From Candidatus Fermentibacteraceae bacterium (GTDB taxonomy: Bacteria; Fermentibacterota; Fermentibacteria; Fermentibacterales; JCC-6): DNA of 25,743 nucleotides. The stretch's first letter is position 1, and each line of letters begins with the position of its first letter. A model generated the notes under the pieces. The model saw only the letters and a program-made list of their open reading frames with translations. It was not told the origin of the DNA and did not search any database. Where the stretch lies: positions 73,671-99,413 of the forward strand of contig JAWLEP010000002.1 in assembly GCA_041686025.1 (NCBI GenBank), read 5' to 3'. Below are positions 1 to 25,704 of this stretch, in pieces. The position numbers were made by a program, and so were the translations under genes.

Positions 1-60
1 AAGGCGGGGGAGTTCAGCTGGCGAAGGTACGCCGAGGTCCTGCTGGAGAGCCTGCGATGA
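1..60 (+). CDS. 3' end of a probable GT4-family glycosyltransferase (partial)
   Basis: Frame 1 reads KAGEFSWRRYAEVLLESLR*. An FSW motif near the C-terminus is typical of GT4 enzymes. The stop overlaps the next ATG (ATGA, 57-60). Only 19 residues are visible. Confidence 0.5.
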   Translation, partial: KAGEFSWRRYAEVLLESLR

Positions 61-947
61 AGGTCCTGCTCACGGGGGCCGGCGGATTCATCGGAAGGCA
101 TGTGCGGGCCGTGCTGCGCGACCTCTCTCACCGGGTGGTGGCGCACGTTCACTCCCGCGACGGCGAGCTGGATGAGGGCAGCCTGCCCTCCGGGCTGGAT
201 GCGGTGGTGAACTGCGCCGGAAGGCTGGGGGGACAGGGGGCGACGCCGGCGGAGATGCGGGCGGCCAACGTGGCCCTTCCCGCCAGGCTGGCCCGGCTCT
301 GCGCCGCCCGGGGCATGCCGATGGTCCATCTCAGCACTCCGGGCGTCACCGGACTCCTTCCCGAAGCGGGAGAGGACCTGCCCCCGGCGCCCTGGGGCGA
401 ATACGAGCGCACGAAGGCCGAGGCCGAGGAGGTCCTCCAGCGGACGCTGCCCCCGAAGCTCCTCACCGTGCTGAGGCCCGACTTCGTCTACGGCCCCGGC
501 GACACCCACAAGCTGGCCATGTTCAGGCAGGTATCCAGAGGCTGGTTCCCCCTTGTGGGCGAGGGGGATGCCCTGCTCCGGCCCACATACGTCTCCGATG
601 TGGCCCGCTCCGTGGCGGAGTCCCTGCCGGGGGGCCGGTTGGCCGGGGGCCTGTACAACATCGGCGGCCCCGAAGTTGTAAGCGTCAGGGAGCTGGTGGG
701 CCTGATCGGCGGGGCTCTGGGCAGACGCGTCCTCACCCTGCCGGTTCCCAGACCGCTGCTGCGCGCCTGCCTGCGACTGGGCCCCCTCCATCCCCCTTCC
801 CTTTCCGAGAGCAGGCTCAGGCTCTTCGGGGAGGACCATTACGTAGACGTGGAGAAGGCCGCCGCCGCCGGGTTCCGGCCCCGGGTGGCTCCCCCGGAGG
901 GCATTGCGGCCACGGTGGACTGGTACAGGCGAAGGCGGATGCTGTGA
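57..947 (+). CDS. NAD-dependent epimerase/dehydratase (extended SDR)
   Basis: N-terminal TGAGGFIG Rossmann motif, YERTK (YxxxK), LRPDFVYGPGD and YNIGG. Confidence 0.9.
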   Translation: MKVLLTGAGGFIGRHVRAVLRDLSHRVVAHVHSRDGELDEGSLPSGLDAVVNCAGRLGGQGATPAEMRAANVALPARLARLCAARGMPMVHLSTPGVTGLLPEAGEDLPPAPWGEYERTKAEAEEVLQRTLPPKLLTVLRPDFVYGPGDTHKLAMFRQVSRGWFPLVGEGDALLRPTYVSDVARSVAESLPGGRLAGGLYNIGGPEVVSVRELVGLIGGALGRRVLTLPVPRPLLRACLRLGPLHPPSLSESRLRLFGEDHYVDVEKAAAAGFRPRVAPPEGIAATVDWYRRRRML

Positions 948-1894
948 CCGGCGAGGGCCTGCGGCGCAAGCTCAGGGTCGTCGGCTGGGTCCTCCTGGCC
1001 TGCCTGGTGGTGGCGACGGCATGGATAGTGGCCCGCCGGGGCGGCCACTGGCTTGCCCAGGTTTCCGCCCACTCATGGCGGCTCTCCTGGCACAGCCTGG
1101 CCGTATCCGCGGTGCTGCTGCTGTACAGCCTCTGGCTGATACCCGAGGGATGGGTGAGGATCTGCAGGGCGCTGGGCAGCCGGGAGCCCAGGAGACTTCT
1201 GCGGGCGGTATGGTTCGCCAGCCAGCTGGGGCGCTACGTGCCGGGCAAGATCTGGCTCTTCGCCGGCAGGGCCGGCTTCCTCCGCGGAAGGGGCATGAGA
1301 ATGTCCCGGGCCGCCGCGGCTCCGGTGGCCGAGCTGCTTTTCACCGCCGCCGCCGCAGGCGTCTCCAGCCTGGCCGGGCTGCTCATCTGGGGCGGCGGAA
1401 TGGCCGACCACCTTCTGTACATGCTGCTGGCGGCTTCGGGGCTGGCCGTCCTTCTGCCCTTCCTGCATCCCCTTCAGAGGCTGCTTGTCAGGATGCGGGG
1501 CGGTCCCGCCGAGTCCGAGGCGCCGCTGAACCTCCCGGCATCGCAGAGCTTCCTGCTGCTGGGGCTCTACTCCGGCCTGTGGATCATGCGGGCACTGGCG
1601 CTGCTGGTCTGGCTTCGGGGGTTCGGGATCGAGGGGGTGGGCTTCGGAGCCTGTCTGGCCGGCATTCCGCTGTCATGGCTGGCCGGCTACGCCGCCTTCT
1701 TCGTCCCCGGGGGCATAGGCGTAAGGGAAGCCGCCCTGGTGGGCATCCTGTCGGCCGGGGGAGACACGGGGCCGCTGCTGGTGGCGGTGGCCGGCCAGCG
1801 TCTGCTGCTCTCCCTGGGCGAGCTGGCTCTGGGACTGTTATCTTTCGGGGCGTTCGGAAAATGGCGGAAAGAGACCGAGGAGACCCCCAAATGA
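944..1894 (+). CDS. Lysylphosphatidylglycerol-synthase TM domain (flippase-like) membrane protein
   Basis: Multi-pass hydrophobic protein with SQLGRYVPGKIW and PGGIGVRE motifs. GTGA overlap with the upstream gene. No DUF2156 aminoacyl-transferase domain. Confidence 0.75.
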   Translation: MTGEGLRRKLRVVGWVLLACLVVATAWIVARRGGHWLAQVSAHSWRLSWHSLAVSAVLLLYSLWLIPEGWVRICRALGSREPRRLLRAVWFASQLGRYVPGKIWLFAGRAGFLRGRGMRMSRAAAAPVAELLFTAAAAGVSSLAGLLIWGGGMADHLLYMLLAASGLAVLLPFLHPLQRLLVRMRGGPAESEAPLNLPASQSFLLLGLYSGLWIMRALALLVWLRGFGIEGVGFGACLAGIPLSWLAGYAAFFVPGGIGVREAALVGILSAGGDTGPLLVAVAGQRLLLSLGELALGLLSFGAFGKWRKETEETPK

Positions 1895-4191
1895 AGCACA
1901 GCATCGGATTCCCGGCCGCGGCGGGACTGATCCTCGCGCTGGCCGTTCTCACATACTGGCCCGTACTCCTCCAGGGCAGGCTGCCGGGGGGAGAGCTCAG
2001 CGACACCACGTCCCAGGGATATCCCTTCATGCTCTACGTGGAGAGGTCGCTGGACGGGGGCCACCTTCCGCTGTGGAATCCCTACGTCTTCTGCGGCATT
2101 CCCTTCTACTCCTCCTTCTCGGCTCCGGTGTTCCACCCGGTCCGCGGTCTGCTGATGGTCCTGGGCGGCGCGGAGGCCTTCATCAGGTTCACCTTTCCCA
2201 TACACATGGTCCTGGCGGGGATCTTCGCCTGGCTGTTCCTGGGGTCTCTGGGACTGGGACGGTGGGCGAGGCTGGTGGGAGCGGCGGCCTATGCCGCCGG
2301 AGCGTGGTCCAACACCCTCTTCTACGCCGGCCACGGCAGCAAGGTGGTCTGCTGGAGCCTGCTTCCCCTGGCCCTGTACGGATGCGAGCGGTGGATGAGG
2401 TCGGGGAGGGTCGTATTCGCGGGACTGGCCGGACTGGCCCTGGGCCTGCAGGGACTGGCCAGCCATCCGCAGATGATGCTCTACACCGGCGGGGCGGTTC
2501 TCATATGGCTGGCCTGGCGGGCGGGTCAGATCGGCGGAGGAAGGGCCTGGGTCCGGGCCGGGTCGGGCCTGGCGGCGGTGGCCCTGCTGGGGCTGGCCAT
2601 AGGAGCTGTGCAGCTGCTGCCCGGCTACAACTTCTCGCAGGTCTCCACCAGGGGCGGGAACCTCTCCCCGGAGACGGCGGCCAGCTACTCCCTCCCCCCC
2701 GAGGAAACGCTGACCATGGCCTTCCCCCGGCTCTTCGGCCTGCGGCACGGCTTCCCGGGCAGCAGCGTGGCCGGGGTTCCCGTCTACTTCGGAAGGCTGG
2801 GACTGCGGCTGAGCAGCGAGTTCCTGGGGGTATCCGTATTCGCCCTGGCCATCATCGGCATCATCCTGGCGGGACGCAGAAGACGGTGGCCCCTGCTGGG
2901 AATAGGCCTGGCGGGCCTGCTGGTCTCCTGGGGCGGGTATACGCCCCTCTTCGACGTCCTGTACACCGTAGTGCCCCTGTTCCGAAAGCTGCGCGCACCC
3001 CACATGGCCGCCTTCCTCACCACGTCGGGGCTCTCTCTCATGGCCGCCTACGGCCTGCACGCACTGAGGCGGGAGGGGGCTCCTCTGGCCAGGGTCCGCA
3101 ACGGCCTTCTCGTCGGCTCGGGGGCCTGCCTGCTCCTGCTGCTGGCCGCAGGGCCCATCTCCGAGGCCCTGCAGTCGGGATGGTGGCGGAGGATGGGGGT
3201 CCCCGGGGGCATCGGCTACGGCGGGGTCATCTCCAGGCGGGTCTCCCTGGCCAGGATGGACTTCGCACAGGCGGCCGCAGTCCTGCTGGCAATGGCCGGG
3301 CTGGTGGAGGCTCGCGCCAGAAGGAGGATCCCGGGCTGGGGCCTGCCCGCGGGGGTGGTTCTGCTGGCTGCCCTGGAGCTGGTGCCCTTCAACCGGGACT
3401 TCCAGGTCTACCTCCATCATCATGACGTGGAAGGCGTAGTGGGAAGCAATGACAGGATGGCCGAGCTGGCCGGGACGGGACGGGTATATCCCGGCGGCAA
3501 CCACCTGGTCCCGGACTCGATCCACTCCGTGGCCGGCTACCATGCGGCCAAGCCCGCCGTCACCGAGGACCTGCTCTCGGTCCTCTCCAGCGGGAGCCCC
3601 GCCGCCCTGCGCCAGACGGCGGCCACGGTCTTCACTCTGCAGGGCAGCACCTTGACCTACCAGCAGCTGAGGCAGGCCCTGGCCTCCGACACCTCCGGAC
3701 AGGCCAGGGAGATGGTCGGGCGGATGCCGGAACGGCCGCTTCCCCGGGCCTTCCTTGCCGACTCCTACCTGGTTGCCAGGCCGGGTGACATAGAGCGTTC
3801 CCTCTCGGTGGGGTACGACCCGCAGGCCTTCACCCTCCTGGCCGAGAGCCCCGATCTGCCGGCGGGAGTGTCGGGAAACGGAACGGTAAGGCTGATCGAG
3901 GAGACCCCGGTCTCCCTGGAGCTCGAGGTGGAGTCGGAGGGGCCGGGGCTGCTGGTACTGGCGGACACCTGGGACCCCGGGTGGAGGGCCAGCGTTGACG
4001 GTCTCGCCACCGGGGTCCTGCAGGCCAACCACTGGCAGCGAGCCGTTGCCGTCCCCGACGGCAGCCACCGGGTCCTCTTCCGGTACGACGCCTCCGACGT
4101 GAAGACAGGTGGTCTGATAACCGCCCTGGCCACCCTCCTGCTGGTCGCCGTGGCCTTCGCCGACCGGTGGCGCAGGGGAAGGGGATCTTGA
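1891..4191 (+). CDS. YfhO-family GT-C-fold membrane glycosyltransferase (766 aa)
   Basis: Start reassigned to ATG 1891 (ATGA overlap; MKHSIGF...). PLWNPYVFCGIP in the first loop, many TM helices, and a C-terminal GLLVLADTWDPGWRASVDG...AVAVPDGSHRVLFRY YfhO signature followed by a final TM helix. Confidence 0.8.
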   Translation: MKHSIGFPAAAGLILALAVLTYWPVLLQGRLPGGELSDTTSQGYPFMLYVERSLDGGHLPLWNPYVFCGIPFYSSFSAPVFHPVRGLLMVLGGAEAFIRFTFPIHMVLAGIFAWLFLGSLGLGRWARLVGAAAYAAGAWSNTLFYAGHGSKVVCWSLLPLALYGCERWMRSGRVVFAGLAGLALGLQGLASHPQMMLYTGGAVLIWLAWRAGQIGGGRAWVRAGSGLAAVALLGLAIGAVQLLPGYNFSQVSTRGGNLSPETAASYSLPPEETLTMAFPRLFGLRHGFPGSSVAGVPVYFGRLGLRLSSEFLGVSVFALAIIGIILAGRRRRWPLLGIGLAGLLVSWGGYTPLFDVLYTVVPLFRKLRAPHMAAFLTTSGLSLMAAYGLHALRREGAPLARVRNGLLVGSGACLLLLLAAGPISEALQSGWWRRMGVPGGIGYGGVISRRVSLARMDFAQAAAVLLAMAGLVEARARRRIPGWGLPAGVVLLAALELVPFNRDFQVYLHHHDVEGVVGSNDRMAELAGTGRVYPGGNHLVPDSIHSVAGYHAAKPAVTEDLLSVLSSGSPAALRQTAATVFTLQGSTLTYQQLRQALASDTSGQAREMVGRMPERPLPRAFLADSYLVARPGDIERSLSVGYDPQAFTLLAESPDLPAGVSGNGTVRLIEETPVSLELEVESEGPGLLVLADTWDPGWRASVDGLATGVLQANHWQRAVAVPDGSHRVLFRYDASDVKTGGLITALATLLLVAVAFADRWRRGRGS

Positions 4192-6293
4192 GCAGACACC
4201 GGAGACTCTTCCACCACATCTCCACCTGGGGCGGAGTGGTCCTGCTCGCGGGTGCGGGGGTCTACTTCGCCCTGGAGCTGTGGCCCCGCTGGCAGCCGGA
4301 GCTGCAGAGGTTCTGGGAGGGCTCCCGGGACAACGCCAGCTGGCCCACCCTGGTGCTCTCCTTCCTCCTTCTGTGGGGCGGCTACTACTTCGCCCCCCAC
4401 GCCTGGGCCAGGATCCTCCAGGCGCTGAAGACCCCGGCCATAGACCGCGGCAGGCTCCGGCGGAACTGGTTCACCACCCAGATGGGGGCCTACGTTCCCG
4501 GAAAGGTCTGGATGGTGGTGGGGCGGGTGAGCTTCCTGGGGAGCAACGGGGTCAGCTCGGTGAAGGGCTTCACCGCCCTGATACTGGAGAACATCTACAT
4601 GATGGTGGCTCTGAGCATACTGGCCCTGGTGGCCCTTCCCTTCCTCAGCCTGGCGGACGTACCCCTGGCGGTGATCATCGTCCTCTGGGTATCCGTGGGC
4701 CTGGCCGTGCTTATGCTGTTCGCCCCCGGAATCCAGCGCCGCATAGCCCGGGCCTTCAGCCACCGCATGGGCACGGACATCGAGGACCTGCCGCACATAT
4801 CCCACCGCCACCAGGCCGGCTTCATCGGCTACCACCTGCTGTCCTGGGGGCTGCGGGGCCTGGCGCTGTACACCTGGTTCAGGGGCTTCGGGGTCCCCTC
4901 CTCCGACCCCTCCTACGCCATGGTGGCCGTGTGCCTCCTGGCCGCGCCCGCCTCCTGGCTGGTGGCCCTGGCCATGGTCTTCATCCCCGGCGGCATAGGG
5001 GTCCGGGAGTCGGTACGGGGCCTGCTGCTCTCGGGGTTCGTCCCGGGGGGCATGGCGGTGGCCACCACCATCGCCCTGGGCCAGAGGCTCATAGTGCTGC
5101 TGGTGGAGGGGGGGTTCGCCCTGCAGGCGGTGATCCACGACTTCCTCCAGAAGCGCTATCCGGTGAAGATGAACCACCTCAGCCAGCTGTCCCACCTGGC
5201 CTGGAGCATGGCCACCTCCATGCTCGCCAGGCTGGGCCTGGCCAAGCCGCCGCACCCCATAAACGTCACCTTCTCGGTTACCATGAGGTGCCAGTCGCGC
5301 TGCAAGACCTGCTTCATCTGGAAGCATCGGCCCCAGGGGGAGGAGCTGGACCTTCCCGGGATTGAGATGCTCTTTCGCTCCATAGGCTGGACCTACTTCT
5401 TCAACGTCTCCGGCGGCGAGCCCTTCCTGCGTGACGACCTGCCCGAGATCGTCCGCCTTGCCTGCAGGCACATGCATCCGGCGGTGGTCCACATACCCAC
5501 CAATGCCCTCATGCCGGAGCGGGTGGAAGAGCTCACCGAGAGGATCCTCCTGGCCATCGAGGAGGAGGCCCCCGGTACGGTGCTGACCATCAAGCCCTCC
5601 ATGGACGGGGTGGGCGAGCTTCACGACGAGATCCGGGGCGTCCCCGGAAACTTCGAGAAGCTGCTGGACACACTGGACAGGCTGAAGGAGCTGCGCGAGA
5701 TGCACAAGTACCTGCACGTCGGCGTGGGTACGGTGATATCGCGCTACAACGCAGACCGGCTGGGGGAGATCATCGAGTTCGCCCGCAGCCTGGACGTGGA
5801 CACCTACATCAACGAGATAGCGGAGGAGCGGCAGGAGTTCTACAACATAGGAAGCGGCATCACCCCGCAGGGCAGCAGGTACGGGGAGATCATGCAGACC
5901 TTCGGGGAATCCGTGGCCCGGCAGATGCGCGACATGCATCTCTTGGGCAGGATCACCACTGCCTTCAGGCTGGTCTACTACGACCTGGTGGTCCGCATAC
6001 TGGAGGAGGACCGCCAGGTGATCCCCTGCTACGCCGGCATCCTCAACGTGCACGTGAACGCCGACGGCTCCGTGTGGCCATGTGCCGTCCTGGCCTACTC
6101 CGGGGAGATGGGCGTCCTGGAGGACGGCAGGGACTTCCGTGAGATATGGGACTCCAACACCGCATGGAAGGTCCGCCGGTCCATACGTCGCGGCGAGTGC
6201 GCCTGCCCCCTGGCCAACCAGGCATACTCCAACATCCTTCTCCATCCCCCCTCCCTGCTCAAGGCGGTCTGGATAGCCGTCAGGGGCGGCTGA
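4188..6293 (+). CDS. Fusion of an LPG-synthase-TM flippase-like domain and a radical SAM enzyme with a twitch/SPASM-type auxiliary domain (701 aa)
   Basis: Probable TTG start at 4188 (TTGA overlap, purine-rich RBS); GTG 4167 is an alternative. The N-half has TQMGAYVPGKVW and PGGIGVRE. The C-half has CQSRCKTC (5289-5312), SGGEPFLR, PTNA, SMDG...HDEIRG and a C-terminal C-x17-C-x38-C-x-C. Confidence 0.85.
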   Translation: MSRHRRLFHHISTWGGVVLLAGAGVYFALELWPRWQPELQRFWEGSRDNASWPTLVLSFLLLWGGYYFAPHAWARILQALKTPAIDRGRLRRNWFTTQMGAYVPGKVWMVVGRVSFLGSNGVSSVKGFTALILENIYMMVALSILALVALPFLSLADVPLAVIIVLWVSVGLAVLMLFAPGIQRRIARAFSHRMGTDIEDLPHISHRHQAGFIGYHLLSWGLRGLALYTWFRGFGVPSSDPSYAMVAVCLLAAPASWLVALAMVFIPGGIGVRESVRGLLLSGFVPGGMAVATTIALGQRLIVLLVEGGFALQAVIHDFLQKRYPVKMNHLSQLSHLAWSMATSMLARLGLAKPPHPINVTFSVTMRCQSRCKTCFIWKHRPQGEELDLPGIEMLFRSIGWTYFFNVSGGEPFLRDDLPEIVRLACRHMHPAVVHIPTNALMPERVEELTERILLAIEEEAPGTVLTIKPSMDGVGELHDEIRGVPGNFEKLLDTLDRLKELREMHKYLHVGVGTVISRYNADRLGEIIEFARSLDVDTYINEIAEERQEFYNIGSGITPQGSRYGEIMQTFGESVARQMRDMHLLGRITTAFRLVYYDLVVRILEEDRQVIPCYAGILNVHVNADGSVWPCAVLAYSGEMGVLEDGRDFREIWDSNTAWKVRRSIRRGECACPLANQAYSNILLHPPSLLKAVWIAVRGG

Positions 6294-6355
6294 GACCTCT
6301 TCCACAGCGACATCACTCGCATTATTCCGACCATGACCATTTCATTACAAAAAAT

Positions 6356-6384
6356 TTGACAGTCGAGCAATATTTTTTTAGTGT
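6356..6384 (+). promoter_or_regulatory. sigma70-type promoter for the 6443 gene
   Basis: TTGACA (6356-6361), 17-nt spacer, TAGTGT (6379-6384), with an A-tract upstream, in an AT-rich intergenic island. Confidence 0.65.
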
Positions 6385-6442
6385 ACTCCTCCGTTCGAGC
6401 GGGTTGCTCGAATTGTGACTACACCGAAGGGAGTTACCAACG

Positions 6443-7708
6443 ATGCGAGCACTTCTTCTTGCAGCTCTGGCAGTATCTGCAGCCATGGCCTTCTCCGGCG
6501 AGGACGTGCAGTGGGAGGACCTGGCCATGGAGTCCACGGTGAGCAACTGCATCACCTGGGACGACAACGGCGGCAGGATGCTGGTGGGCACCTACGAGGG
6601 ATTCCACAGCTGGGACATCGCCGCCGGCGAGTGGACGGTGGTGGAGGAGAACGGCATGGTGGGCCGCGAGGTCTACTGCATAGACGCGGGAACGACCCAG
6701 CCGGACATCATCATCACCGGACGAGCCACCGCCTTCGACAAGGGCTACATGGACGCGTCCTTCGACTTCGGCGAGAACTGGGACTACTACCACAGCAGCG
6801 CGGGCGGGGCCTTCTGGGCCCTCCACCAGGACGTGTCGGTGGCCGGCCGCTTCTACAGCGGCGCCATTTCCGACATCGAGCCCGGCGATCTCCTGGTTAC
6901 CGACGACAACGGCCAGAGCTGGACCGCCCTGGAGAAGCCCCAGAGCGCCATTACGGACATCACCCAGAACCTCATGGGCACGCTCTACACCTGCGGAGTC
7001 CCCTACGTCTACAAAAGCGACGACGGCGGGACCACCTGGGAGGAGGCCGCCGGCGGCCTCAGCAGCGGGACCATCTTCTACTCCATAGCTACCGAAGGCA
7101 TGGATCCCGACGTCCTGGTCTGCTCCGACGAGAACGGCATCTACAGGACCACCGACGGCGGAGAGAGCTGGACACAGGTGGGCGACCAGTGCTGCATGGA
7201 GATAGAGTACTGCCCCGGCGAGCCGACGAAGCTGGCGGCCGTAACCCTCTCAGGCGGCGTCCTGGGCAGCACCGACGGCGGCGAGACCTGGTTCGACATC
7301 ACCGGGGACCTGCCGGGGTACCCCATGGAGCTCGCCTTCTGCGGGGATGACGATCATCTCTACGTGGCCACGATGTACGAGGGCACCTACAGGACCCCTG
7401 CGACCTACACCGGAACCGCGGGGGAAACCGGCGCCCAGACGGGCCCCGGCGCCCTCTCGCTGAGCGTCAGCCCCAACCCGGTGACAGCCACCGCGGCGGT
7501 ATCCTACACCCTGCCGCAGGCAGGCACGGTCCGGCTGGACGTCTTCGACGTCACCGGCAGGCTGGTGCGCACTCTGGACGGCGGCCAGATGGAGGCCGGC
7601 GCCCATCAGTCGCTGATCAGCGTATCCGACAGCGATCCGGGAGTGCTCTTCGTAAGGCTCTCCACTGAGTCCGCGTCTGCTGTCCAGAAGGTACTGGTAA
7701 GCAGGTAG
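6443..7708 (+). CDS. Secreted BNR/Asp-box beta-propeller protein with T9SS-type/FlgD-Ig C-terminal domain
   Basis: Signal peptide MRALLLAALAVSAAMA. Asp-boxes SFDFGENW, TDDNGQSW, SDDGGTTW, TTDGGESW and STDGGETW. CTD reads SPNPV...FDVTGRLVRTL...GVLFVRL...KVLVSR. RBS AAGGGAG. Confidence 0.85.
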   Translation: MRALLLAALAVSAAMAFSGEDVQWEDLAMESTVSNCITWDDNGGRMLVGTYEGFHSWDIAAGEWTVVEENGMVGREVYCIDAGTTQPDIIITGRATAFDKGYMDASFDFGENWDYYHSSAGGAFWALHQDVSVAGRFYSGAISDIEPGDLLVTDDNGQSWTALEKPQSAITDITQNLMGTLYTCGVPYVYKSDDGGTTWEEAAGGLSSGTIFYSIATEGMDPDVLVCSDENGIYRTTDGGESWTQVGDQCCMEIEYCPGEPTKLAAVTLSGGVLGSTDGGETWFDITGDLPGYPMELAFCGDDDHLYVATMYEGTYRTPATYTGTAGETGAQTGPGALSLSVSPNPVTATAAVSYTLPQAGTVRLDVFDVTGRLVRTLDGGQMEAGAHQSLISVSDSDPGVLFVRLSTESASAVQKVLVSR

Positions 7709-10878: not shown

Positions 10879-11796
10879 TCAGCCGGGGCTCCCTGCGCCC
10901 TCGCTGACCCGGGGCATCAGAACCCGGTAGACCACCAGGTAGGTGATCACGGCGTAGAGGGCGCCGGCCATCACATCCACGACGTAGTGCTCGGCTCCGT
11001 AGATTATCTCGAAGATAATCACTGCCGCCGGCAGGAAAACCCAGGCGGCCCTCCGGCCGTACTCCCTGATGGCCATCATCAGGATCAGCAGCGGCACCCC
11101 GGCATGGAGGGAGGGCATGGCGCCCCTGGGGCTGGGCTGGAAGGCGCCGGCCACGCTGCCGGGGACCATCCTGCCCAGGGCCCTGAACACCAGTCTGGGC
11201 ATGGGGGGCGCGTTCCCCTCCAGGCTGGCCATCCAGGGCGGGGTGACCGGGTAGAGGATGTAGGTCAGGTAACCGGCCAGGGATATGATGGTCAGGCCCA
11301 CCGTGGCCCTCTTCATCCTCTCGGGGCCTCGGCCGGCCAGCAGGATTGCGGGAAACAGTATGGGCAGCCAGAAGATGGTGGCGTGGAAGGCGGCGAACAC
11401 GTAGTCGAACCATCTCAGTGTGCCCCCGGGGTTGAGCAGCAGCTGCAGCCGGTAGGTGGGAAGGAAGCCGAATATCCAGCGCTCCGCGGCTATCACGTCG
11501 GCGCAGTGAAAGCTGGCGTGGTAGCTGGTTACCACGTTCCGCAGCGCCGGATAGGTGACGAAGAGGAATGCGTAGAATATCCACCTGCGCACGCTCTCCG
11601 GTATGGGGCGAAGGCGGTAGAGCAGGTAGCAGGCCAGCCATATGGCCAGCTGCAGGGGTGGACGCGGAACCAGCCTGGCCAGGGGAATGATCGACACCAG
11701 CAGGCTGTAGCCGCCGGTAACCCAGATTATGATCCGGTAGCTTCTGTCGGTAACCGGCACAAAGAGGCTACCGGGGTCTCGCAGGAACTCTCTCAC
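10879..11796 (-). CDS. PAP2-superfamily membrane protein, Aur1/IPC-synthase-like (PAP2_3)
   Basis: Multi-TM protein with YILYPVTPPW, AMPSLHAG and HYVVD motifs. GTG start. Confidence 0.8.
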   Translation of the reverse strand: MREFLRDPGSLFVPVTDRSYRIIIWVTGGYSLLVSIIPLARLVPRPPLQLAIWLACYLLYRLRPIPESVRRWIFYAFLFVTYPALRNVVTSYHASFHCADVIAAERWIFGFLPTYRLQLLLNPGGTLRWFDYVFAAFHATIFWLPILFPAILLAGRGPERMKRATVGLTIISLAGYLTYILYPVTPPWMASLEGNAPPMPRLVFRALGRMVPGSVAGAFQPSPRGAMPSLHAGVPLLILMMAIREYGRRAAWVFLPAAVIIFEIIYGAEHYVVDVMAGALYAVITYLVVYRVLMPRVSEGAGSPG

Positions 11797-13610: not shown

Positions 13611-15170
13611 ATGTCCCGCCGGCCGACGGATCCGGGGGAGGTCGGCCGGTACTGGACCGCGGCGGCGGTGCTGCTGGTTCTGGCCTCCGCCGTTACCTGG
13701 CCCATGGCGGCAAGCGGAGGGGCGCACGACCATGCGGACACCCTCTACAACTCCTGGCTGCTGGCCTGGAACCACCATGCCCTCACCGGCCTGCACGACC
13801 CCCTGACCCCGCCGATCTTCCTGGGCCAGCCCGACGGGGCCGGAAGGGGTGACCTGCTGCTGACCCAGGCCGTTGCAGCGGCTCCCCTTCTGTGGCTGGG
13901 GCTCTCCCCGCTGCGGGTGCACAACCTGCTGTTCGTGGTCTCCCTGGCCTTCACCGGCTTTGCGGTGATGCTGCTGGCACGCAGGCTGGGGGCCGATCTC
14001 TGGGGCGGTCTGTTCGCGGGCTGCGCCTGCGTCTGCCTGCCCTACTTCCAGAGCCATCTCTGGCACCTCCAGCTGGTCTCCGCCGGCCTGGGCGTGCTGG
14101 CCATGGAGCGGGGGCTGGCCTTCCTGGACGGCCGCTCGTCGGGCTGGTGGGTTCCGGTACTGATACTCCTCCAGGGCTGCGCCGGCCTCTACCACTGGCT
14201 GTTCACGTGGCTGGCCCTGGGGACAATGGCGGTCTGGGCCCTCTTCCGCCGCCGGCCGCGCCGGGCGGCCGCTCTCGCCGGCCTGTCGCTGCTGGGGGCG
14301 GCGGCCATGCTCCCGCTGCTGAGACACCACCTGGAAAACGCCGCCTCCTGGCCCGTGGACCACATAGCCTCCACGGACCTCCTCGCCTTCCTGTCGCCGT
14401 GGGAGACCAGCCTGCTGCTGGGTCCGGCCAGGCCGGAGGCGGTGCGGGGGGAGGTGGCCCTGTGGCCGGGGTCGGCGGTGGTGGTTGCCGCCGCCGCGGC
14501 CCTTCTGCACCCCGGCCTGAGGCGAAGGGTGCGGGCCAAGTGGCTGCTGGCGGGGCTGGCGGTGGCATTCGGGGCCTTCTCCCTGGGACCCACGATTGTG
14601 GCGGGGGGAAGGCAGCTGGCCCCGGGCCCGTTCCGGCTGGCCGCCCTCCTGCCGGGGGTAACCTCCATCCGCCTTCCGGCCAGGGCGGGGCTGTTCGCCC
14701 TCCTCCCGGTCCTGTCCCTGGCCGGGGTGGCGGTCTCGGGGCGGAGGGCTCTGGCCTTCCTGGGGGGCCTGCTCTGTCTGGCCGAGGTGATGCATTCCGG
14801 CCTCGGCATGTACCCGCCCCCTCCGGACCACGCCCACCGCTGGCTGGCGGCGAACCCCCAGGAGGCCGTGGTGTTCCTTCCCCTGGAACCAGATCTGTCC
14901 AGGCCGGAGCGCGAATGCAGCCGGATGTACGGCTCCCGGCTGCACTTTACGGCCATGGTCAACGGATACAGCACCTCCCTCCCGGAGGGATACCGGGAGA
15001 CGGCGGCGGTTCTCAACCGCTGGCCCGCCGCGGAGGCGGAATCGCTTCTCGACCGGCTGGGAGTGGAGTGTATAGTGTACGAGGGAAGAGACCTCCCCGG
15101 CGCGGACACGGTCTACACGGACGGCAGGATCTCCGTTTCCGTGCTCCGGCGCCGGAATGGATGGAAATGA
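13611..15170 (+). CDS. Multi-pass membrane protein, probable GT-C/YfhO-related glycosyltransferase
   Basis: Acidic first loop (HDHADTLYNSWLLAWNHHAL), about 10-12 hydrophobic segments, IRLPAR motif and a soluble C-terminal domain containing MVNGYS. Confidence 0.6.
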   Translation: MSRRPTDPGEVGRYWTAAAVLLVLASAVTWPMAASGGAHDHADTLYNSWLLAWNHHALTGLHDPLTPPIFLGQPDGAGRGDLLLTQAVAAAPLLWLGLSPLRVHNLLFVVSLAFTGFAVMLLARRLGADLWGGLFAGCACVCLPYFQSHLWHLQLVSAGLGVLAMERGLAFLDGRSSGWWVPVLILLQGCAGLYHWLFTWLALGTMAVWALFRRRPRRAAALAGLSLLGAAAMLPLLRHHLENAASWPVDHIASTDLLAFLSPWETSLLLGPARPEAVRGEVALWPGSAVVVAAAAALLHPGLRRRVRAKWLLAGLAVAFGAFSLGPTIVAGGRQLAPGPFRLAALLPGVTSIRLPARAGLFALLPVLSLAGVAVSGRRALAFLGGLLCLAEVMHSGLGMYPPPPDHAHRWLAANPQEAVVFLPLEPDLSRPERECSRMYGSRLHFTAMVNGYSTSLPEGYRETAAVLNRWPAAEAESLLDRLGVECIVYEGRDLPGADTVYTDGRISVSVLRRRNGWK

Positions 15171-17650
15171 AAGGAACTGCAATGGTCCCGCTGCTGCTTT
15201 CCACGCTGCTTCTCGCCACCGCTCCCTTCGGCCCGCCCCGGCTCCCGCGGTCGGAGGTGGAGCGGTCGCCGCTGGAGTCCCGCCCACCGGGCTTCCGGAA
15301 CCTGGCCGTCAGCCTCTGCGACCGGGGGGACTCCGACGTGGCCCTGGTGGTGGCCTCGGGCCTGGAGACGCCCCTGGCCCCGGAGCTGGCCCAGCTGGCC
15401 TCCGACCTGGAGTCGGAGGGCTACAGCGTGATAACCGAGGTGATGACCGGCGGTACCGCCGAGGACCTGCGGAGCTGGCTGGCCGACCACCCCGATCTGG
15501 CCGGGGCCATACTCATCGGGCACCTGCCGGAGGCCTGGTACGAGAGCGACTGGGGATCGGCCCACGAGGAGTACCCCCTGGACCTGTTCCTGATGGACAC
15601 CGACGGCACGTGGACCGATTCCGACGGCGACGGCATCTACGACGGCCACGCAGGCGACCGGGCACCGGAGATCTGGGTGGGCAGGATAGACGCCCACGCC
15701 ATGGAGATGGGATCGGAGGTGGACCAGCTGCGCGACTACCTCACCGCCAACCACCTGTACAGGACCGGGGCCATGGCCCTGCCGGACAGGGCCCTGGTAT
15801 TCAACGACGACGACTGGAGCTACTCCGGCGACTGCGGGCTGGACGCCGTCTACACCGACCTGGACCTCTACCAGGACCAGTCGCAGACCACCGACGACTA
15901 CTACCGGGACAGGCTGGGCCATGGATACGAGTTCGTCCACCTGATGTCCCACTCCTCGCCGTGGGGCCACACCTTCAAGGTGCCCGGGGGCTACTCGGGG
16001 ACGGTCATGGCCCCGGAGATCTCCCAGATCAACCCCCAGACGGCCTTCGTCCAGCTGTTCGCCTGCTCCAACTGCCGGTGGACCGAGCCCAACTGCCTGG
16101 GCAACTGGTACCTGTTCGGCACCGACTCCGGGCTGCTGGCCATCGGGGCCACCAAGACCGGGTCCATGCTGGACTTCGAGCAGTTCTACGGCCCCATTGG
16201 CGACGGCCAGACGCCGGGAGAGGCCTTCCGGGAGTGGTTCACCAACGTGGGCATATACGACGAGAACTGGCACTACGGCTGCGTGCTCCTGGGCGATCCC
16301 ACCCTGCGGCCCCTCAGCGGCAGGCGTCTGTCCGCCTCCCGGGTGCCCGGGGTGGAGACCGGCGCGGACTACGACGCCATCTCCCCCAGCGGGGAGTCCG
16401 ACTGCTACCCCGTGGCCGCCACCGGCGGCGGGCTCACCTGCGTGGCCTGGCTCACCGGGGCCAACGGAAGGCTGGACCTGCAGACCCGGTGCTGGGACGG
16501 AGAGAGCTGGAGCCAGGTGTACACCATTGACGCCGACGAGTACTGGGACGTGACGCCGGACGTGGCCTTCGACGGCAGCGGCGACCCCTGGGTGGCCTGG
16601 GGCGACTTCGACTCCGCCAGCTACGGATACAACATCAAGGTGGCCACCGGAGATGGCTTCGGCGACGTCTCCATAGCCGCCTCGGGCTCCGGCTACGACG
16701 TGAGCCCGGCCCTGGCCTGGTCGGACGGGATGTGGCTGGCCTGGCAGGTCTGGCGGCGCGGCGGGGGGGACGTGATGATCAAGCGGCTGGACGGGGGCTT
16801 CCCGGAGACCTACCTGAGCTCCCAGGGCAGCCAGGACCTGGCCCCCGACATAGCCGTCCTGGACGGAGAGGTCTTCGCGGTATGGGCCTCCCAGGGCCCC
16901 GACGGAGGGAGCATCCTGTGCAGCCGGGGGGACGGGAACGGCTTCTCCGCTCCGGAGCAGATCTCCTCCGGGCAGTTCTGCCGCGCGCCCACCATCTGCT
17001 CGGTGGCCGGGTACGTTGTCGTGGCCTGGCAGGAGAGCGGAAGCACCTCCTCCATAGTGGCCAGGACCTGGAACGGCTCGTCCTGGGGCCAGGAGGAGGT
17101 CCTGGCCGAGAGCGCCGATGCCGCCCTGCTGAGACCCTCCGCGGGCACCGGCCCCTGGGGCGCCCCCGTCGTAACCTGGCAGCGGGGCTTCGGCTCGGAC
17201 GCCGGTATCTGGATGTGCTGCTTCGACCCCCCGGCGTGGTCCGACCCCTTCCAGCCGGTCACGCCCGGGGGACCGGCGTGGCTTCCGGCTCCCGCCGACT
17301 CCGGACTGGCATGGTCCGGCACCGGCGGGTCGGGGGACTGGGACATCTGGTGGAGCCCATGGGAGCTCTCCGGCACCGCCGGAGATCGCAGCGCCACCGA
17401 GCCCCTGCGGCCCAGGCTGGTCTCCAACCCCGTCCGGGGCAGCCTGGTGCTCGCATCGGAGGCTTCCCCCGGCGCCGCCGCCGACGTGAGTGTATACGAC
17501 ATGTCCGGCAGGCTGGTGGCCAGGAGCACCTGGGAGATGGACGGAGCCAACCTGTCCGTCGACATCTCCCACAGGCCCAGCGGGGTCTACGCCGTGAGGG
17601 TCAGGCGGGGAACCCGGCGCTGGTGCGAGAGGTTCACACTGCTGAGATAG
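15167..17650 (+). CDS. C25 (gingipain-family) cysteine peptidase domain + repeat beta-propeller + T9SS-type CTD
   Basis: Start reassigned to 15167 (ATGA overlap); 15182 is an alternative. Signal peptide, PEIWVGRI, HLMSHSS (His), LFACSN (Cys) and LLGDPTL. Seven P...[VL]xW repeats follow, then a CTD SNPVRG...YDMSGRLV...SGVYAVRV. Confidence 0.75.
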   Translation: MKGTAMVPLLLSTLLLATAPFGPPRLPRSEVERSPLESRPPGFRNLAVSLCDRGDSDVALVVASGLETPLAPELAQLASDLESEGYSVITEVMTGGTAEDLRSWLADHPDLAGAILIGHLPEAWYESDWGSAHEEYPLDLFLMDTDGTWTDSDGDGIYDGHAGDRAPEIWVGRIDAHAMEMGSEVDQLRDYLTANHLYRTGAMALPDRALVFNDDDWSYSGDCGLDAVYTDLDLYQDQSQTTDDYYRDRLGHGYEFVHLMSHSSPWGHTFKVPGGYSGTVMAPEISQINPQTAFVQLFACSNCRWTEPNCLGNWYLFGTDSGLLAIGATKTGSMLDFEQFYGPIGDGQTPGEAFREWFTNVGIYDENWHYGCVLLGDPTLRPLSGRRLSASRVPGVETGADYDAISPSGESDCYPVAATGGGLTCVAWLTGANGRLDLQTRCWDGESWSQVYTIDADEYWDVTPDVAFDGSGDPWVAWGDFDSASYGYNIKVATGDGFGDVSIAASGSGYDVSPALAWSDGMWLAWQVWRRGGGDVMIKRLDGGFPETYLSSQGSQDLAPDIAVLDGEVFAVWASQGPDGGSILCSRGDGNGFSAPEQISSGQFCRAPTICSVAGYVVVAWQESGSTSSIVARTWNGSSWGQEEVLAESADAALLRPSAGTGPWGAPVVTWQRGFGSDAGIWMCCFDPPAWSDPFQPVTPGGPAWLPAPADSGLAWSGTGGSGDWDIWWSPWELSGTAGDRSATEPLRPRLVSNPVRGSLVLASEASPGAAADVSVYDMSGRLVARSTWEMDGANLSVDISHRPSGVYAVRVRRGTRRWCERFTLLR

Positions 17651-21081: not shown

Positions 21082-22173
21082 GTGTCCAAGGCCCCAGAAG
21101 GCTCGGGCAGCCGCTTCTCGGGGATTCTGGACAGCTCCCGGATACTCCGGGGCCTTATCGTCTTCCTGGTGCTGTCCGCCATCGGCTTCGGCATCCTGTT
21201 CCTCCGCCCCGCCTCCAGCGACCAGGTGAGGCAGCTGGGCAGGCTCAGGCCCGGGTACCTGGCGCTTACCCTCTGCTTCTCGCTGCTGGACATGTTCCTC
21301 GGCGGGCTGCGCAACCATGTCTTCATCCGCGAGATACGTCCGGACATGGGATACTGGACCAGCTTCAGGGCCAACCTGTCCAACGTCTTCATGGGGGCCA
21401 TGACCCCGTCGCAGACCGGCGGAAGCCCCGCCCAGGTGTTCGTCTACTACCGAAACGGCCTCTCCATAGGGGAGGGCCTTTCCATAATCGTGGTAAACTA
21501 CCTGGCCACGGTCATCTTCTTCATCATTGCCGCGGTCTTCGGCCTGAGGGTGCTCAGCGGCGTGGGCAGCGACACGGTGCTGACGCTGGTTGCCGTGGCC
21601 TTCGGCCTGTTCAGCCTGCAGCTGCTTCTGTTCCTCTTCTTCCTGTGGAGGCCGGAGATGGTGGAGAGGCTGCTGCGGAGCGTGTCGGCGTGGCTGGCCC
21701 GGAAGCTCCGGTTCGCTTCTTCCTTCATCGGGCGGGCATCGGCCAGGCTGTGCGACGAGCTGGCCGAGTTCCAGGAGGCCTGCCAGCTCTTCCTCCGCCG
21801 CAAGCCGGCGATCTTCCTGCAGAGCTTCGGGCTCACCGCGGTCCTCTACTTCAACAAGTTCCTCCTGGCCTGGCTGGTGATGCGGGGCCTGGGAATCGAT
21901 GGAAGCGTCCTGGAGGTTCTGGCCATACAGGCCCTGATAGTGTTCATTCTCTACTTCTCCCCCAGTCCCGGGGGAAGCGGCATAGCCGAGCTGACCACCG
22001 GCGCCCTCATGGCCCGCATGGTGCCCATGGCCAGGATGGGGGTCTTCACGGCCCTGCAGCGGTTCTTCTTCCTCTACCTTCCCGCCGGGGTGGGAGCGGT
22101 GATCTTCCTGCACGCCCTGGGCCGCTACGCCGCGGAGAGGGCTGTGGAGAGCCTCGAGGACGCCGATGGCTGA
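21082..22173 (+). CDS. Lysylphosphatidylglycerol-synthase TM domain (UPF0104/flippase-like) protein
   Basis: Multi-TM protein with TPSQTGGSPAQ, PSPGGSGIAE and RFFFLYLP motifs. GTG start with GGAAGGAG RBS. Confidence 0.85.
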   Translation: MSKAPEGSGSRFSGILDSSRILRGLIVFLVLSAIGFGILFLRPASSDQVRQLGRLRPGYLALTLCFSLLDMFLGGLRNHVFIREIRPDMGYWTSFRANLSNVFMGAMTPSQTGGSPAQVFVYYRNGLSIGEGLSIIVVNYLATVIFFIIAAVFGLRVLSGVGSDTVLTLVAVAFGLFSLQLLLFLFFLWRPEMVERLLRSVSAWLARKLRFASSFIGRASARLCDELAEFQEACQLFLRRKPAIFLQSFGLTAVLYFNKFLLAWLVMRGLGIDGSVLEVLAIQALIVFILYFSPSPGGSGIAELTTGALMARMVPMARMGVFTALQRFFFLYLPAGVGAVIFLHALGRYAAERAVESLEDADG

Positions 22174-22202: not shown

Positions 22203-23438
22203 CTACCTGCCCAGGCCCGTCAGCCTGAGAAACGCAGTGTCCCCTTCCGCCTCGGCGGAGCACACGAATACGCCGGATGCGGGCACCGTCAGATCGATTG
22301 CGTGGCAGCCGGCAGGCAGCTGGCCCATGCGCCGGCACATCAGCTGCCGGCCCGCGATGTCGAACAGCCTAACGGTCACCGCTGCAGGCTCGGAGAGGGA
22401 CAGCTCCAGCCCGGCGGTCCCGGTGCAGGGATTGGTCCCGGCCAGGGAGAGCTGGACGCCGCCTGCGTCATCGCCGCTCTCCACGCCTGAGGGGCCCCCG
22501 CCGATCACCGCCAGCTCACCCAGCTCGTTGTCCACGACGTAAACCTCGGTGCCCGCCGGATGGACGCAAATGCCCAGGGGGCTTGCTCCGGTGGACACGG
22601 TATCCGCCACTGTCCCCTGGGAGAGGTCAAGCACCATTACCTCCCCGGTCCCGCTGGAGGAGACGTAGAGGTGCTGGCCGCCCGGCAGCACGCAGATGTC
22701 CAGCGGCTCGTCCCCGACTCCGGAGACCTCGTCCACCACCTGGCCGGTCCCCACGTCCACCACCTTGACCATGTCCCACGGGGGCACGGTGAAGTAGAGG
22801 AGCGAGCCGTCCGGAGATGCGCATACGTCCCGGGTGTCCGCCCCCGTGAACAGGTCCGCGGTTCCGTAGTCGTCGAGGTCTACAAGGGTTGCGTTGTAGG
22901 AGTCGGACCTGGCCACGCAGGCGCTTCCGCTGCCCGGCAGTGCGCAGACGCCCCGCGGCGAGCTGCCCACCGAGACCACTTCCTCCACCGTCCAGCTGCC
23001 GGTCTCTATCACCCACAGCTGAAACAGGTTGCAGGTGACGAGGACCCTCTGGCCGTCCGGTACCGCCTCTATGTATTCCGGGTCGGCTCCCACCTCCACC
23101 GTGGCCAGGTGCTGCATGTCACCGGCTCCGATCACCTCCACGCTGCTCTCCTCCACGTTGCAGGCCAGGAGGTGCTGGCCGTCGGGGGTCACGCATATTC
23201 CGCCCAGCTCGCTTCCGATGTAGCAGGTGCCGTCCACGGAGTATCCGTCGGTCTCCACGGAGCTGACGATTCCGAACTCCGCAGCGGCGTACACATGGCC
23301 TCCGTCGGGGGAGGCGCACACCCCCACCGGGCCGCTGGCTCCCCCCAGGGATACGGTGGCCACCACGCTGTCGGGGTAGTCGGCCGCATGCAGGGCCGGC
23401 ACCAGCAGCAGCCCCGCCGCGACTGCCGGACGCAGCAC
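22203..23438 (-). CDS. Secreted YncE/YVTN-type 7-blade beta-propeller with T9SS-type CTD (411 aa)
   Basis: Start reassigned to GTG 23438 (GAGGT RBS, just after the upstream stop). Signal peptide, seven P-x-G-[VI]-C-x-x-P-D-G-like repeats, and a CTD TNPC...FDIAGR...SGVF. Confidence 0.8.
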   Translation of the reverse strand: MLRPAVAAGLLLVPALHAADYPDSVVATVSLGGASGPVGVCASPDGGHVYAAAEFGIVSSVETDGYSVDGTCYIGSELGGICVTPDGQHLLACNVEESSVEVIGAGDMQHLATVEVGADPEYIEAVPDGQRVLVTCNLFQLWVIETGSWTVEEVVSVGSSPRGVCALPGSGSACVARSDSYNATLVDLDDYGTADLFTGADTRDVCASPDGSLLYFTVPPWDMVKVVDVGTGQVVDEVSGVGDEPLDICVLPGGQHLYVSSSGTGEVMVLDLSQGTVADTVSTGASPLGICVHPAGTEVYVVDNELGELAVIGGGPSGVESGDDAGGVQLSLAGTNPCTGTAGLELSLSEPAAVTVRLFDIAGRQLMCRRMGQLPAGCHAIDLTVPASGVFVCSAEAEGDTAFLRLTGLGR

Positions 23439-23440
23439 GG

Positions 23441-25657: not shown

Positions 25658-25704
25658 CAGGGTCTCCTTCTTCAAGAGTGTGGGAGCTCCTTGTCTTCGA
25701 GAGC

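Follow-up and report, generated by a model that had tools for sequence, protein, structure and literature searches.

We found that a flippase-type membrane domain and a radical S-adenosylmethionine (SAM) enzyme are joined in a single protein, and that this fusion is real and conserved in one phylum, the Fermentibacterota. The gene lies at 4188..6293 (+ strand) of a stretch of 25,743 nt from Candidatus Fermentibacteraceae bacterium (assembly GCA_041686025.1, contig JAWLEP010000002.1, positions 73,671-99,413, forward strand), here called the window, and it is the last gene of an operon. Its product of 701 amino acids carries an LPG_synthase_TM domain resembling subdomain 1 of MprF, followed by a radical SAM/twitch enzyme. 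The fusion is apparently an undescribed radical tailoring enzyme placed on half of an MprF flippase, in a variant of the envelope glycosylation systems that combine a glycosyltransferase (GT) of family 2 (GT2), a flippase and a GT of the GT-C type. The preliminary description of this DNA, made from its letters alone, knew of no characterised protein with this architecture; likewise, no description of an LPG_synthase_TM and radical SAM fusion was found in the literature searched (titles and starts of abstracts, mostly of open-access papers), and radical chemistry on a lipid-carried sugar in envelope glycosylation was absent from the literature reached.

Positions 4188-6293 translate into 701 stop-free codons in a single frame. 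The earliest possible start of this frame is GTG 4167, giving 708 residues, and the likely start codon is TTG 4188, because it overlaps the stop of the upstream YfhO-like gene (TTGA, 4188-4191); a purine-rich AGGGGA stretch precedes it, and the lengths of the homologues, mostly about 696-704 residues, agree with it. Pfam places LPG_synthase_TM (PF03706) at residues 49-296 (E 1e-13, 51.8 bits against a cut-off of 33.4), Radical_SAM (PF04055) at residues 363-531 (E 6e-12, 46.4 bits against 29.5) and SPASM (PF13186) at residues 614-673, narrowly above its cut-off (E 2e-4, 22.2 bits against 21.5). We assign residues 1-326 (4188..5165, +) to the membrane domain and residues 328-701, from Met328 onwards (5169..6293, +), to the radical SAM domain. 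As the preliminary description had it, one uninterrupted open reading frame (ORF) joins the two, and the motifs are exactly those it gave: CxxxCxxC for the cluster (C368-x3-C372-x2-C375, 5289..5312, +) and GGEP for SAM binding (residues 409-412, 5412..5423, +), both read from the sequence and the alignment, and four putative auxiliary-cluster Cys of the twitch type (C614-x17-C632-x38-C671-x-C673, 6027..6206, +), recognised by their conservation and the SPASM match. A scan for promoters and terminators gave a signal no better than chance, and RNA runs X16 and X17, which held small shares and diverged pieces only, are silent on the expression of the fusion.

In order to follow the fusion in other genomes, we considered the best 120 of 293 matches of a homologue search. 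Of these 120, 91 are 670 residues or longer, comprising the window's own entry, 88 relatives that are 51-86% identical and two distant ones at 39-40%; the close relatives belong to Candidatus Fermentibacteria. By our own tally from the match table, a single match that is free of stops and spans approximately residues 10-697 is present in 60 of the 70 Fermentibacterota genomes. The match is partial in G009, G029, G042, G050 and G069, owing to contig ends, frameshifts or unreadable sequence, but there too the reading frame runs on through the junction from one domain into the other. A full orthologue was not found in G023, G025 and G031 (66-88% complete), the first of which keeps the first 40 residues at 62% identity. 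A contig of DNA run X2 covers 4611-6600 and a contig of run X4, from a different study, covers 5045-5860, each crossing the junction at 5169 with three differences and no gap. The 60 genomes and these two contigs rule out an assembly artefact or two separate genes, two of the ways in which the preliminary description had thought that its reading might fail (an error at the junction, or a stop before ATG 5169 in relatives); the third, an architecture already common and characterised, did not apply either in the literature searched.

Unfused relatives start at the junction, at the position of Met328. Of 89 fused rows, 70 have Met here and 9 have Val, and in at least two loci the junction codon is not a start codon. 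Since unfused relatives begin there and the residue varies in this way, Met328 is likely a relic start codon that is no longer required. In two Fermentibacterota genomes, G010 and G018, the radical SAM gene is unfused and occupies the same operon position. G018 (98% complete) nests inside the fused enzymes in our tree, and its unfused state is therefore likely a secondary loss; G010, whose branch lies immediately outside this group (support 95/91), may predate the fusion. The G018 locus (L082:8001-9140) lacks the whole membrane domain and its radical SAM gene begins at the junction codon, 3 bases past the YfhO stop, making it a natural deletion of the fused membrane half. In one genome, G036, the radical SAM domain occurs twice; the additional copy (L091, G036:C149) is 72% identical and is truncated by the contig start.

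The C-terminal part belongs to the radical SAM superfamily by its CxxxCxxC and GGE motifs, partial TIM barrel and PF04055 match, with SAM cleavage as a prediction, and to the SPASM/twitch subclass by its PF13186 match, four conserved Cys and fold, with cluster binding likewise predicted. A twitch domain is a Cys-rich C-terminal extension with four Cys for one auxiliary cluster. All seven Cys, three in CxxxCxxC and four auxiliary, are kept in 92/92 fused and 25/25 short alignment rows, and the auxiliary four in 29/29 close rows and 85-87 of 88 wider rows. Modelled alone, the domain reached a pLDDT of 95.6. Its top fold matches are BlsE (7vob, Z 23.2) and SkfB (Z 22.9), a tie, followed by anSME, SuiB and PqqE; BtrN (4m7s/4m7t) scores Z 15.6 and SpeY (7wzv) Z 11.4. 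The likeness to BtrN that the preliminary description drew from the four Cys thus survives as a shared motif and recedes as a fold, BtrN standing behind both leaders. Because BlsE and SkfB tie, other maturases follow and BtrN scores lower, the predicted fold settles the subclass and not the reaction. In the comparison with BtrN, BlsE, SpeY and HygY as possible orthologues, structural alignments give 16-17% identity. SkfB is also its best sequence match in the PDB, and among the best 25 of 38 NCBIfam families no named radical SAM equivalog exceeded its cut-off (TIGR03961, 69 against 306 bits; N_Twi_rSAM, 44 against 170).

A fifth Cys, Cys633, is present in 25/29 unfused relatives and replaced by Ala in 97% of fusions, and Cys426 is present in 96% of fusions. 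In NeoN a Cys serves as hydrogen donor (PMC10991966, from the part of the paper available), and the same kind of Cys matters in HygY according to a title in a reference list (PMC11117688, PMC10267522, PMC10991966). Given these donors, the loss of Cys633 would mildly favour oxidation or dehydration with a partner reductase over a self-contained epimerase with its own Cys donor. As a test of membrane binding, we inspected the terminal helices: their hydrophobic moments (0.54-0.57) are not above those of the barrel helices, and the N-terminal helix has a net charge of about +3. A complex prediction for the radical SAM domain and the operon's short-chain dehydrogenase/reductase (SDR) scored 0.00, which gives no answer and is neutral on their interaction.

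The membrane part was probed by structure prediction. The full-length model (pLDDT 87.7, pTM 0.81) has helices continuous through the junction, and its residues 38-321 align with residues 54-325 of Rhizobium tropici MprF (6lvf_A) at Z 20.3 and rmsd 3.4 (251 aligned, 12% identity), which bears out the flippase-type domain of the preliminary description. Subdomain 1 of MprF (Leu24-Arg325) forms a cytoplasmic lipid cavity and holds a Glu280-Arg304 gate, as set out in the available part of PMC8131360; the fused domain is predicted to have the fold of this subdomain alone, not of the whole flippase. Residues P104-G105, R113, E134, G269, E274, R300 and E307 are invariant in 89/89 fused rows, and E274 and R300 are also kept in two distant fusions, P0095 and P0120. 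The spacing G268-G269...E274 equals that of MprF Ala274-Gly275...Glu280, and we infer that E274 and R300 (5007..5087, +) are the counterpart of the gate pair, a mapping made by conservation and by spacing to the residues named in that source and not by residue-level superposition. A profile of the membrane domain found no MprF among PDB sequences, and the best 25 of 38 NCBIfam families included neither GpgF nor TIGR00374 for the fusion. The PF03706 match above cut-off and the MprF subdomain-1 fold place the domain in LPG_synthase_TM/UPF0104, with translocation as a prediction; that it flips a lipid we hold with moderate confidence.

The operon points to glycosylation. Genes for an LpxH-like phosphoesterase, a GT2 and a GT of family 4 (GT4) lie upstream of the window. 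Within it follow an SDR of the extended type (57..947, +; GxxGxxG and S-Y-x3-K motifs; best NCBIfam models OleD, RmlD and HpnA, all below cut-off), a separate LPG_synthase_TM gene, paralogous to the fused membrane domain at about 30-35% identity (944..1894, +), and a YfhO-like membrane protein, a predicted GT-C (1891..4191, +; Pfam YfhO E 5e-5, below cut-off; Atlas score against YfhO clusters 0.99, TM 0.91). These three genes and the fusion overlap successively by 4 bases, and the YfhO-like gene and the fusion are predicted to be translationally coupled. The order LpxH-GT2-GT4-SDR-TM-YfhO-rSAM is complete in 32/54 Fermentibacterota loci and is matched by 20 more as far as the locus extends, one of them (L088) with its GT4 on the opposite strand; in the remaining two, genes were missed by the ORF caller or frameshifted. 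The catalytic S/T, Y and K of the SDR are intact in 20/20, and the GT4 profile found only generic, MshA/BshA-like matches in the PDB. In the tree, the fused membrane domain and the operon paralogue are sister groups (88/92, unstarred), and this grouping suggests a local duplication of the LPG_synthase_TM gene followed by fusion.

ArnC/ArnEF/ArnT, CsbB-GtcA-YfhO and PgfS-PgfM are three-component GT2-flippase-GT-C systems. Such a gene set is present here in one operon, with the GT2 (best NCBIfam models ArnC and PgfS) and YfhO-like assignments below curated cut-offs; flippase-type genes share the operon with them, and, unlike in those systems, LPG_synthase_TM replaces a flippase of the GtrA/EmrE type, and a GT4, an SDR and a radical SAM enzyme are added. 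Two further pathways were considered and rejected. HpnA/I/J/K/L form the hopanoid side-chain cluster; the genome (94.75% complete) gave 0 PF13243 matches, and because no squalene-hopene cyclase was found there would be no hopanoid scaffold. The genome carries LpxB, and the LpxH-like gene heads the operon; however, core operon genes also occur in Lachnospiraceae/Oscillospiraceae, which are without lipid A, and lipid A as an obligatory acceptor was discarded. LpxH is likely a passenger.

Relatives of the radical SAM enzyme occur widely. A 22-sequence profile matched 1,899 representatives at E<=1e-30, an upper bound for the family that takes in other SPASM enzymes. No characterised member was found in the family, which carries generic annotations only. 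Ten of the best 150 exceed 580 residues. Besides the Fermentibacterota fusion they comprise four proteins fused to a GT2, one fused to a GT4, one with an FAD-binding and one with a HEAT domain, one with an intein and one unassigned. An intein lies within the radical SAM domain of P0240. In a metagenome scan of 80 of 432 relatives, we dropped two operons of the Fermentibacterota type and counted the neighbours in 37 of the 78 loci, those flanked by 6 kb or more. A GT4 of the same type occurs in 22 of the 37 and an SDR of the same type in 20 (19 without L137, which scored only through being in the alignment); 17 have both and 25 have either. The SDR is the commonest direct neighbour (12/37). An ArnC-like GT2 is found in 13/37, LPG_synthase_TM in 8/37 (directly upstream in 5/37) and a Wzx-type flippase in at least 8/37, a lower bound, as L103 and L160 have Pfam Wzx matches under threshold; the two flippase types are never together (0). 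These counts are descriptive only, because some of the profile sequences came from the loci counted and seven pairs of loci share 85% identity or more; profiles from Fermentibacterota genes alone gave the same picture. Among selected neighbours, taken unsystematically, GT-C-type matches (PMT_2, YfhO or PTPS-related) occur in L108, L110, L118, L126, L135, L138, L140, L160, L168, L175 and L182.

The two distant fusions P0095 and P0120 have an LPG_synthase_TM domain 22-24% identical to that of the window, and their radical SAM domains group with the unfused P0109, P0117 and P0121 (99/99). Because a single clade of all fusions and nested unfused rows was rejected by the approximately unbiased test (p-AU 0.000165), phylogeny indicates that the fusion arose at least two times independently. 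A 706-residue ORF in L119 was dismissed as a third fusion, its N-terminal half having no Pfam domain and reading as low-complexity non-coding sequence. For a large family with generic annotations only, the fusion and its repeats with flippase and glycosyltransferase domains give a strong hint of function.

From this setting we infer with strong confidence that the substrate is a sugar and with moderate confidence that it is lipid-linked. A polyprenyl carrier, rather than a glycerolipid, is moderately favoured because of the ArnC-like GT2, the GT-C genes and the exchange with Wzx; a keto intermediate reduced by the SDR has a weak to moderate standing. In our estimate the chances are about even that the radical SAM domain turns a polyprenyl-phosphate-linked sugar into a keto sugar, which the SDR would reduce before it is flipped and transferred by the GT-C. 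In such a pathway the GT2, of ArnC/PgfS-like family, would load a sugar on polyprenyl phosphate and the GT4 would add or supply a second one. The radical SAM domain would then abstract a ring hydrogen of the carrier-bound sugar, leading to a ketone either by oxidation aided by the single four-Cys auxiliary cluster, as in BtrN, or by loss of water, as in BlsE. The SDR would reduce the ketone to an epimerised or deoxy sugar, the fused or the adjacent LPG_synthase_TM domain, or both, would flip the product, as fold and gate residues suggest, and the YfhO-like GT-C would transfer the sugar to an envelope polymer or surface protein. If so, a lipid-anchored sugar would be remodelled, then flipped, and would end up decorating the outside of the cell.

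Several observations weigh against a lipid-linked sugar modified at its own flippase. Outside Fermentibacterota the radical SAM enzyme is mostly unfused, and in G010 and G018 no orthologue of the membrane domain was found elsewhere in the genome; because of both, coupling of modification to translocation is not obligatory, and the fusion, which would put the enzyme at the flippase entrance, is dispensable. The preliminary description had proposed an enzyme of lipid-linked sugars or head groups, coupled to translocation. A glycosylation setting is supported, more strongly than the letters alone could show, by the conserved operon and repeated fusions; the lipid-linked substrate, the chemistry and the coupling stay proposals. 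Neither GT4 nor SDR is in reach in 12 of the 37 other loci, PDB entries for epimerases and dehydratases of NDP-sugars score high with the SDR profile, BlsE ties (at 17-19% identity) with SkfB, a peptide maturase, and the fusion lacks MprF subdomain 2 (TM9-14) and the Tyr residues of YRxxY. The flippase activity of the related GpgF is itself unverified in the available part of PMC12713373.

Some of these observations would suit a radical SAM enzyme and SDR that make an unusual soluble NDP-sugar, to be loaded by the GT2 or GT4, with the fusion serving as a tether or for operon compaction. The unfused enzymes elsewhere and in G010 and G018, the junction Met kept in most rows, the SDR as commonest direct neighbour with its resemblance to NDP-sugar enzymes, and BlsE, by its paper title a 1,2-diol dehydratase of a soluble blasticidin S precursor (PMC11117688, PMC10267522, PMC10991966), all fit. 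However, two independent fusions involve the same flippase family, LPG_synthase_TM lies directly upstream in other loci too, and the best whole-length models of the SDR are of the OleD/HpnA type, not GalE/RmlB, so that we consider a soluble product rather unlikely. We also see a minor chance that the GT4, like GpgS, attaches a sugar to a glycerolipid, that the radical SAM domain remodels the head group, for instance by a ring contraction like that of calditol synthase or by deoxygenation, and that the fused domain flips the finished lipid, leaving the GT2, the second membrane protein and YfhO to a separate carrier pathway. A GT4 and a UPF0104 flippase make GlcN-PG in Pseudomonas aeruginosa (available part of PMC12713373), and calditol synthase is a radical SAM remodeller of head groups (available part of PMC13459092). 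The GT4 is also more frequent than the ArnC-like GT2 (22 against 13 of 37), two membrane paralogues could serve two lipids, and the flippase with the matching fold translocates phospholipids. Against this, the GT4 matches the GpgS model only at E 2e-12, far under cut-off, GT-C genes often neighbour the enzyme, the lack of a squalene-hopene cyclase removes a hopanoid scaffold, and a Wzx-type flippase replaces LPG_synthase_TM in at least 8 loci. Wzx-type flippases carry polyprenyl-linked glycans. A SPASM/twitch maturase of proteins or peptides, similar to anSME or SkfB and merely anchored by its membrane part, would accord with SkfB, anSME, SuiB and PqqE among the top folds and with SkfB as best PDB sequence match; we regard it as very improbable, for Pfam finds no RiPP-recognition domain, only four auxiliary Cys are present, all maturase models score far under cut-off, and neighbourhoods and fusions are glycan-related. 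ORFs under 90-120 residues were uncalled in the related loci, where a small precursor peptide would be missed.

DprE1/DprE2 is the mycobacterial decaprenylphosphoryl-ribose epimerase, an oxidase with an SDR reductase, and DprE1 is a flavoprotein. To return to the carrier-bound sugar, it is possible, if somewhat doubtful, that the fusion represents, in a form coupled to the membrane, a widespread and undescribed radical SAM and SDR module that epimerises or deoxygenates such sugars and here feeds its own flippase, as MprF does for aminoacyl lipids. As part of that proposal, the module might tentatively be seen as an oxygen-independent radical counterpart of DprE1/DprE2, which likewise epimerises a polyprenyl-linked sugar before export and, unlike the module, has no radical SAM enzyme; the comparison is one of analogy only.

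Other known systems share parts of this arrangement. MprF (R. tropici 6lvf/7duw; P. aeruginosa 9j8s) has the same subdomain-1 fold, the putative Glu-Arg gate and a cytoplasmic enzyme fused C-terminally to the translocator, but the fusion, with a radical SAM partner instead of the GNAT aminoacyl transferase, falls outside MprF as delimited in the available part of PMC8131360: the radical SAM domain begins right after residue 327, and there is no tandem-GNAT and no TM9-14. GpgSDF of P. aeruginosa and AglD2-YbhN of UPF0104 likewise unite a GT4, a tailoring enzyme and an LPG_synthase_TM flippase in one operon (available part of PMC12713373), whereas here the tailoring enzyme is a radical SAM protein, with an SDR, and is fused to the flippase, and GT2 and GT-C genes are also present. 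BlsE, BtrN, SpeY, HygY and NeoN share the SPASM/twitch fold and the four C-terminal Cys; in contrast, their substrates are soluble antibiotic precursors, identity is at most 17%, and the family described here, found in loci for envelope glycosylation, bears additional helices at both termini. Another radical SAM enzyme, calditol synthase (Cds, Saci_1489), is proposed to remodel lipid-linked glucose (available part of PMC13459092); compared by description, it differs in its archaeal tetraether substrate. As a natural counterpart of MprF subdomain 1 alone, the fused domain could serve as a minimal flippase in asking whether that half translocates lipid. The enzyme's function is experimentally approachable, since Eisenbergiella tayi, a cultured species, has an unfused member (L109) adjoining GT2, GT4 and SDR genes.

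Further features were noted around the family and in the window. In L133:5866-7977, L143, L136 and L138, the gene immediately upstream of the unfused radical SAM gene joins the partner GT4 to a SAM-dependent methyltransferase, and methyltransferases and B12 radical SAM genes (10/37 loci) often adjoin family members. Longer radical SAM ORFs of 436-464 residues (L137, L139, L142, L146, L149, L156, L159), in which the GT4/SDR pair is mostly missing where neighbours were checked, may be a functionally diverged branch. A LAGLIDADG intein lies in the neighbouring carbamoyltransferase of L180:8655-11687, and an extracytoplasmic function (ECF) sigma factor gene precedes the LpxH-headed operon at L021:8852-9424 and in several relatives. 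The genome has six matches to the LPG_synthase_TM family; the third in the window (21082-22173) is stand-alone, above the TIGR00374 cut-off and weakly similar to the GlcN-PG flippase model. Two membrane proteins are kept downstream of the operon in relatives, one PAP2-like (10879-11796, its orthologue matching PAP2_3) and one of 519 residues with no Pfam match (13611-15170), and they may recycle the lipid carrier or serve as an extra GT-C. Four apparently secreted proteins, possible acceptors of surface glycosylation, are encoded at 6443-7708, 15167-17650, 22203-23627 and 23441-25675; one is a beta-propeller, and three have Por_Secre_tail/FlgD-like C-terminal matches (BNR propeller, peptidase C25-like, Ig-domain).

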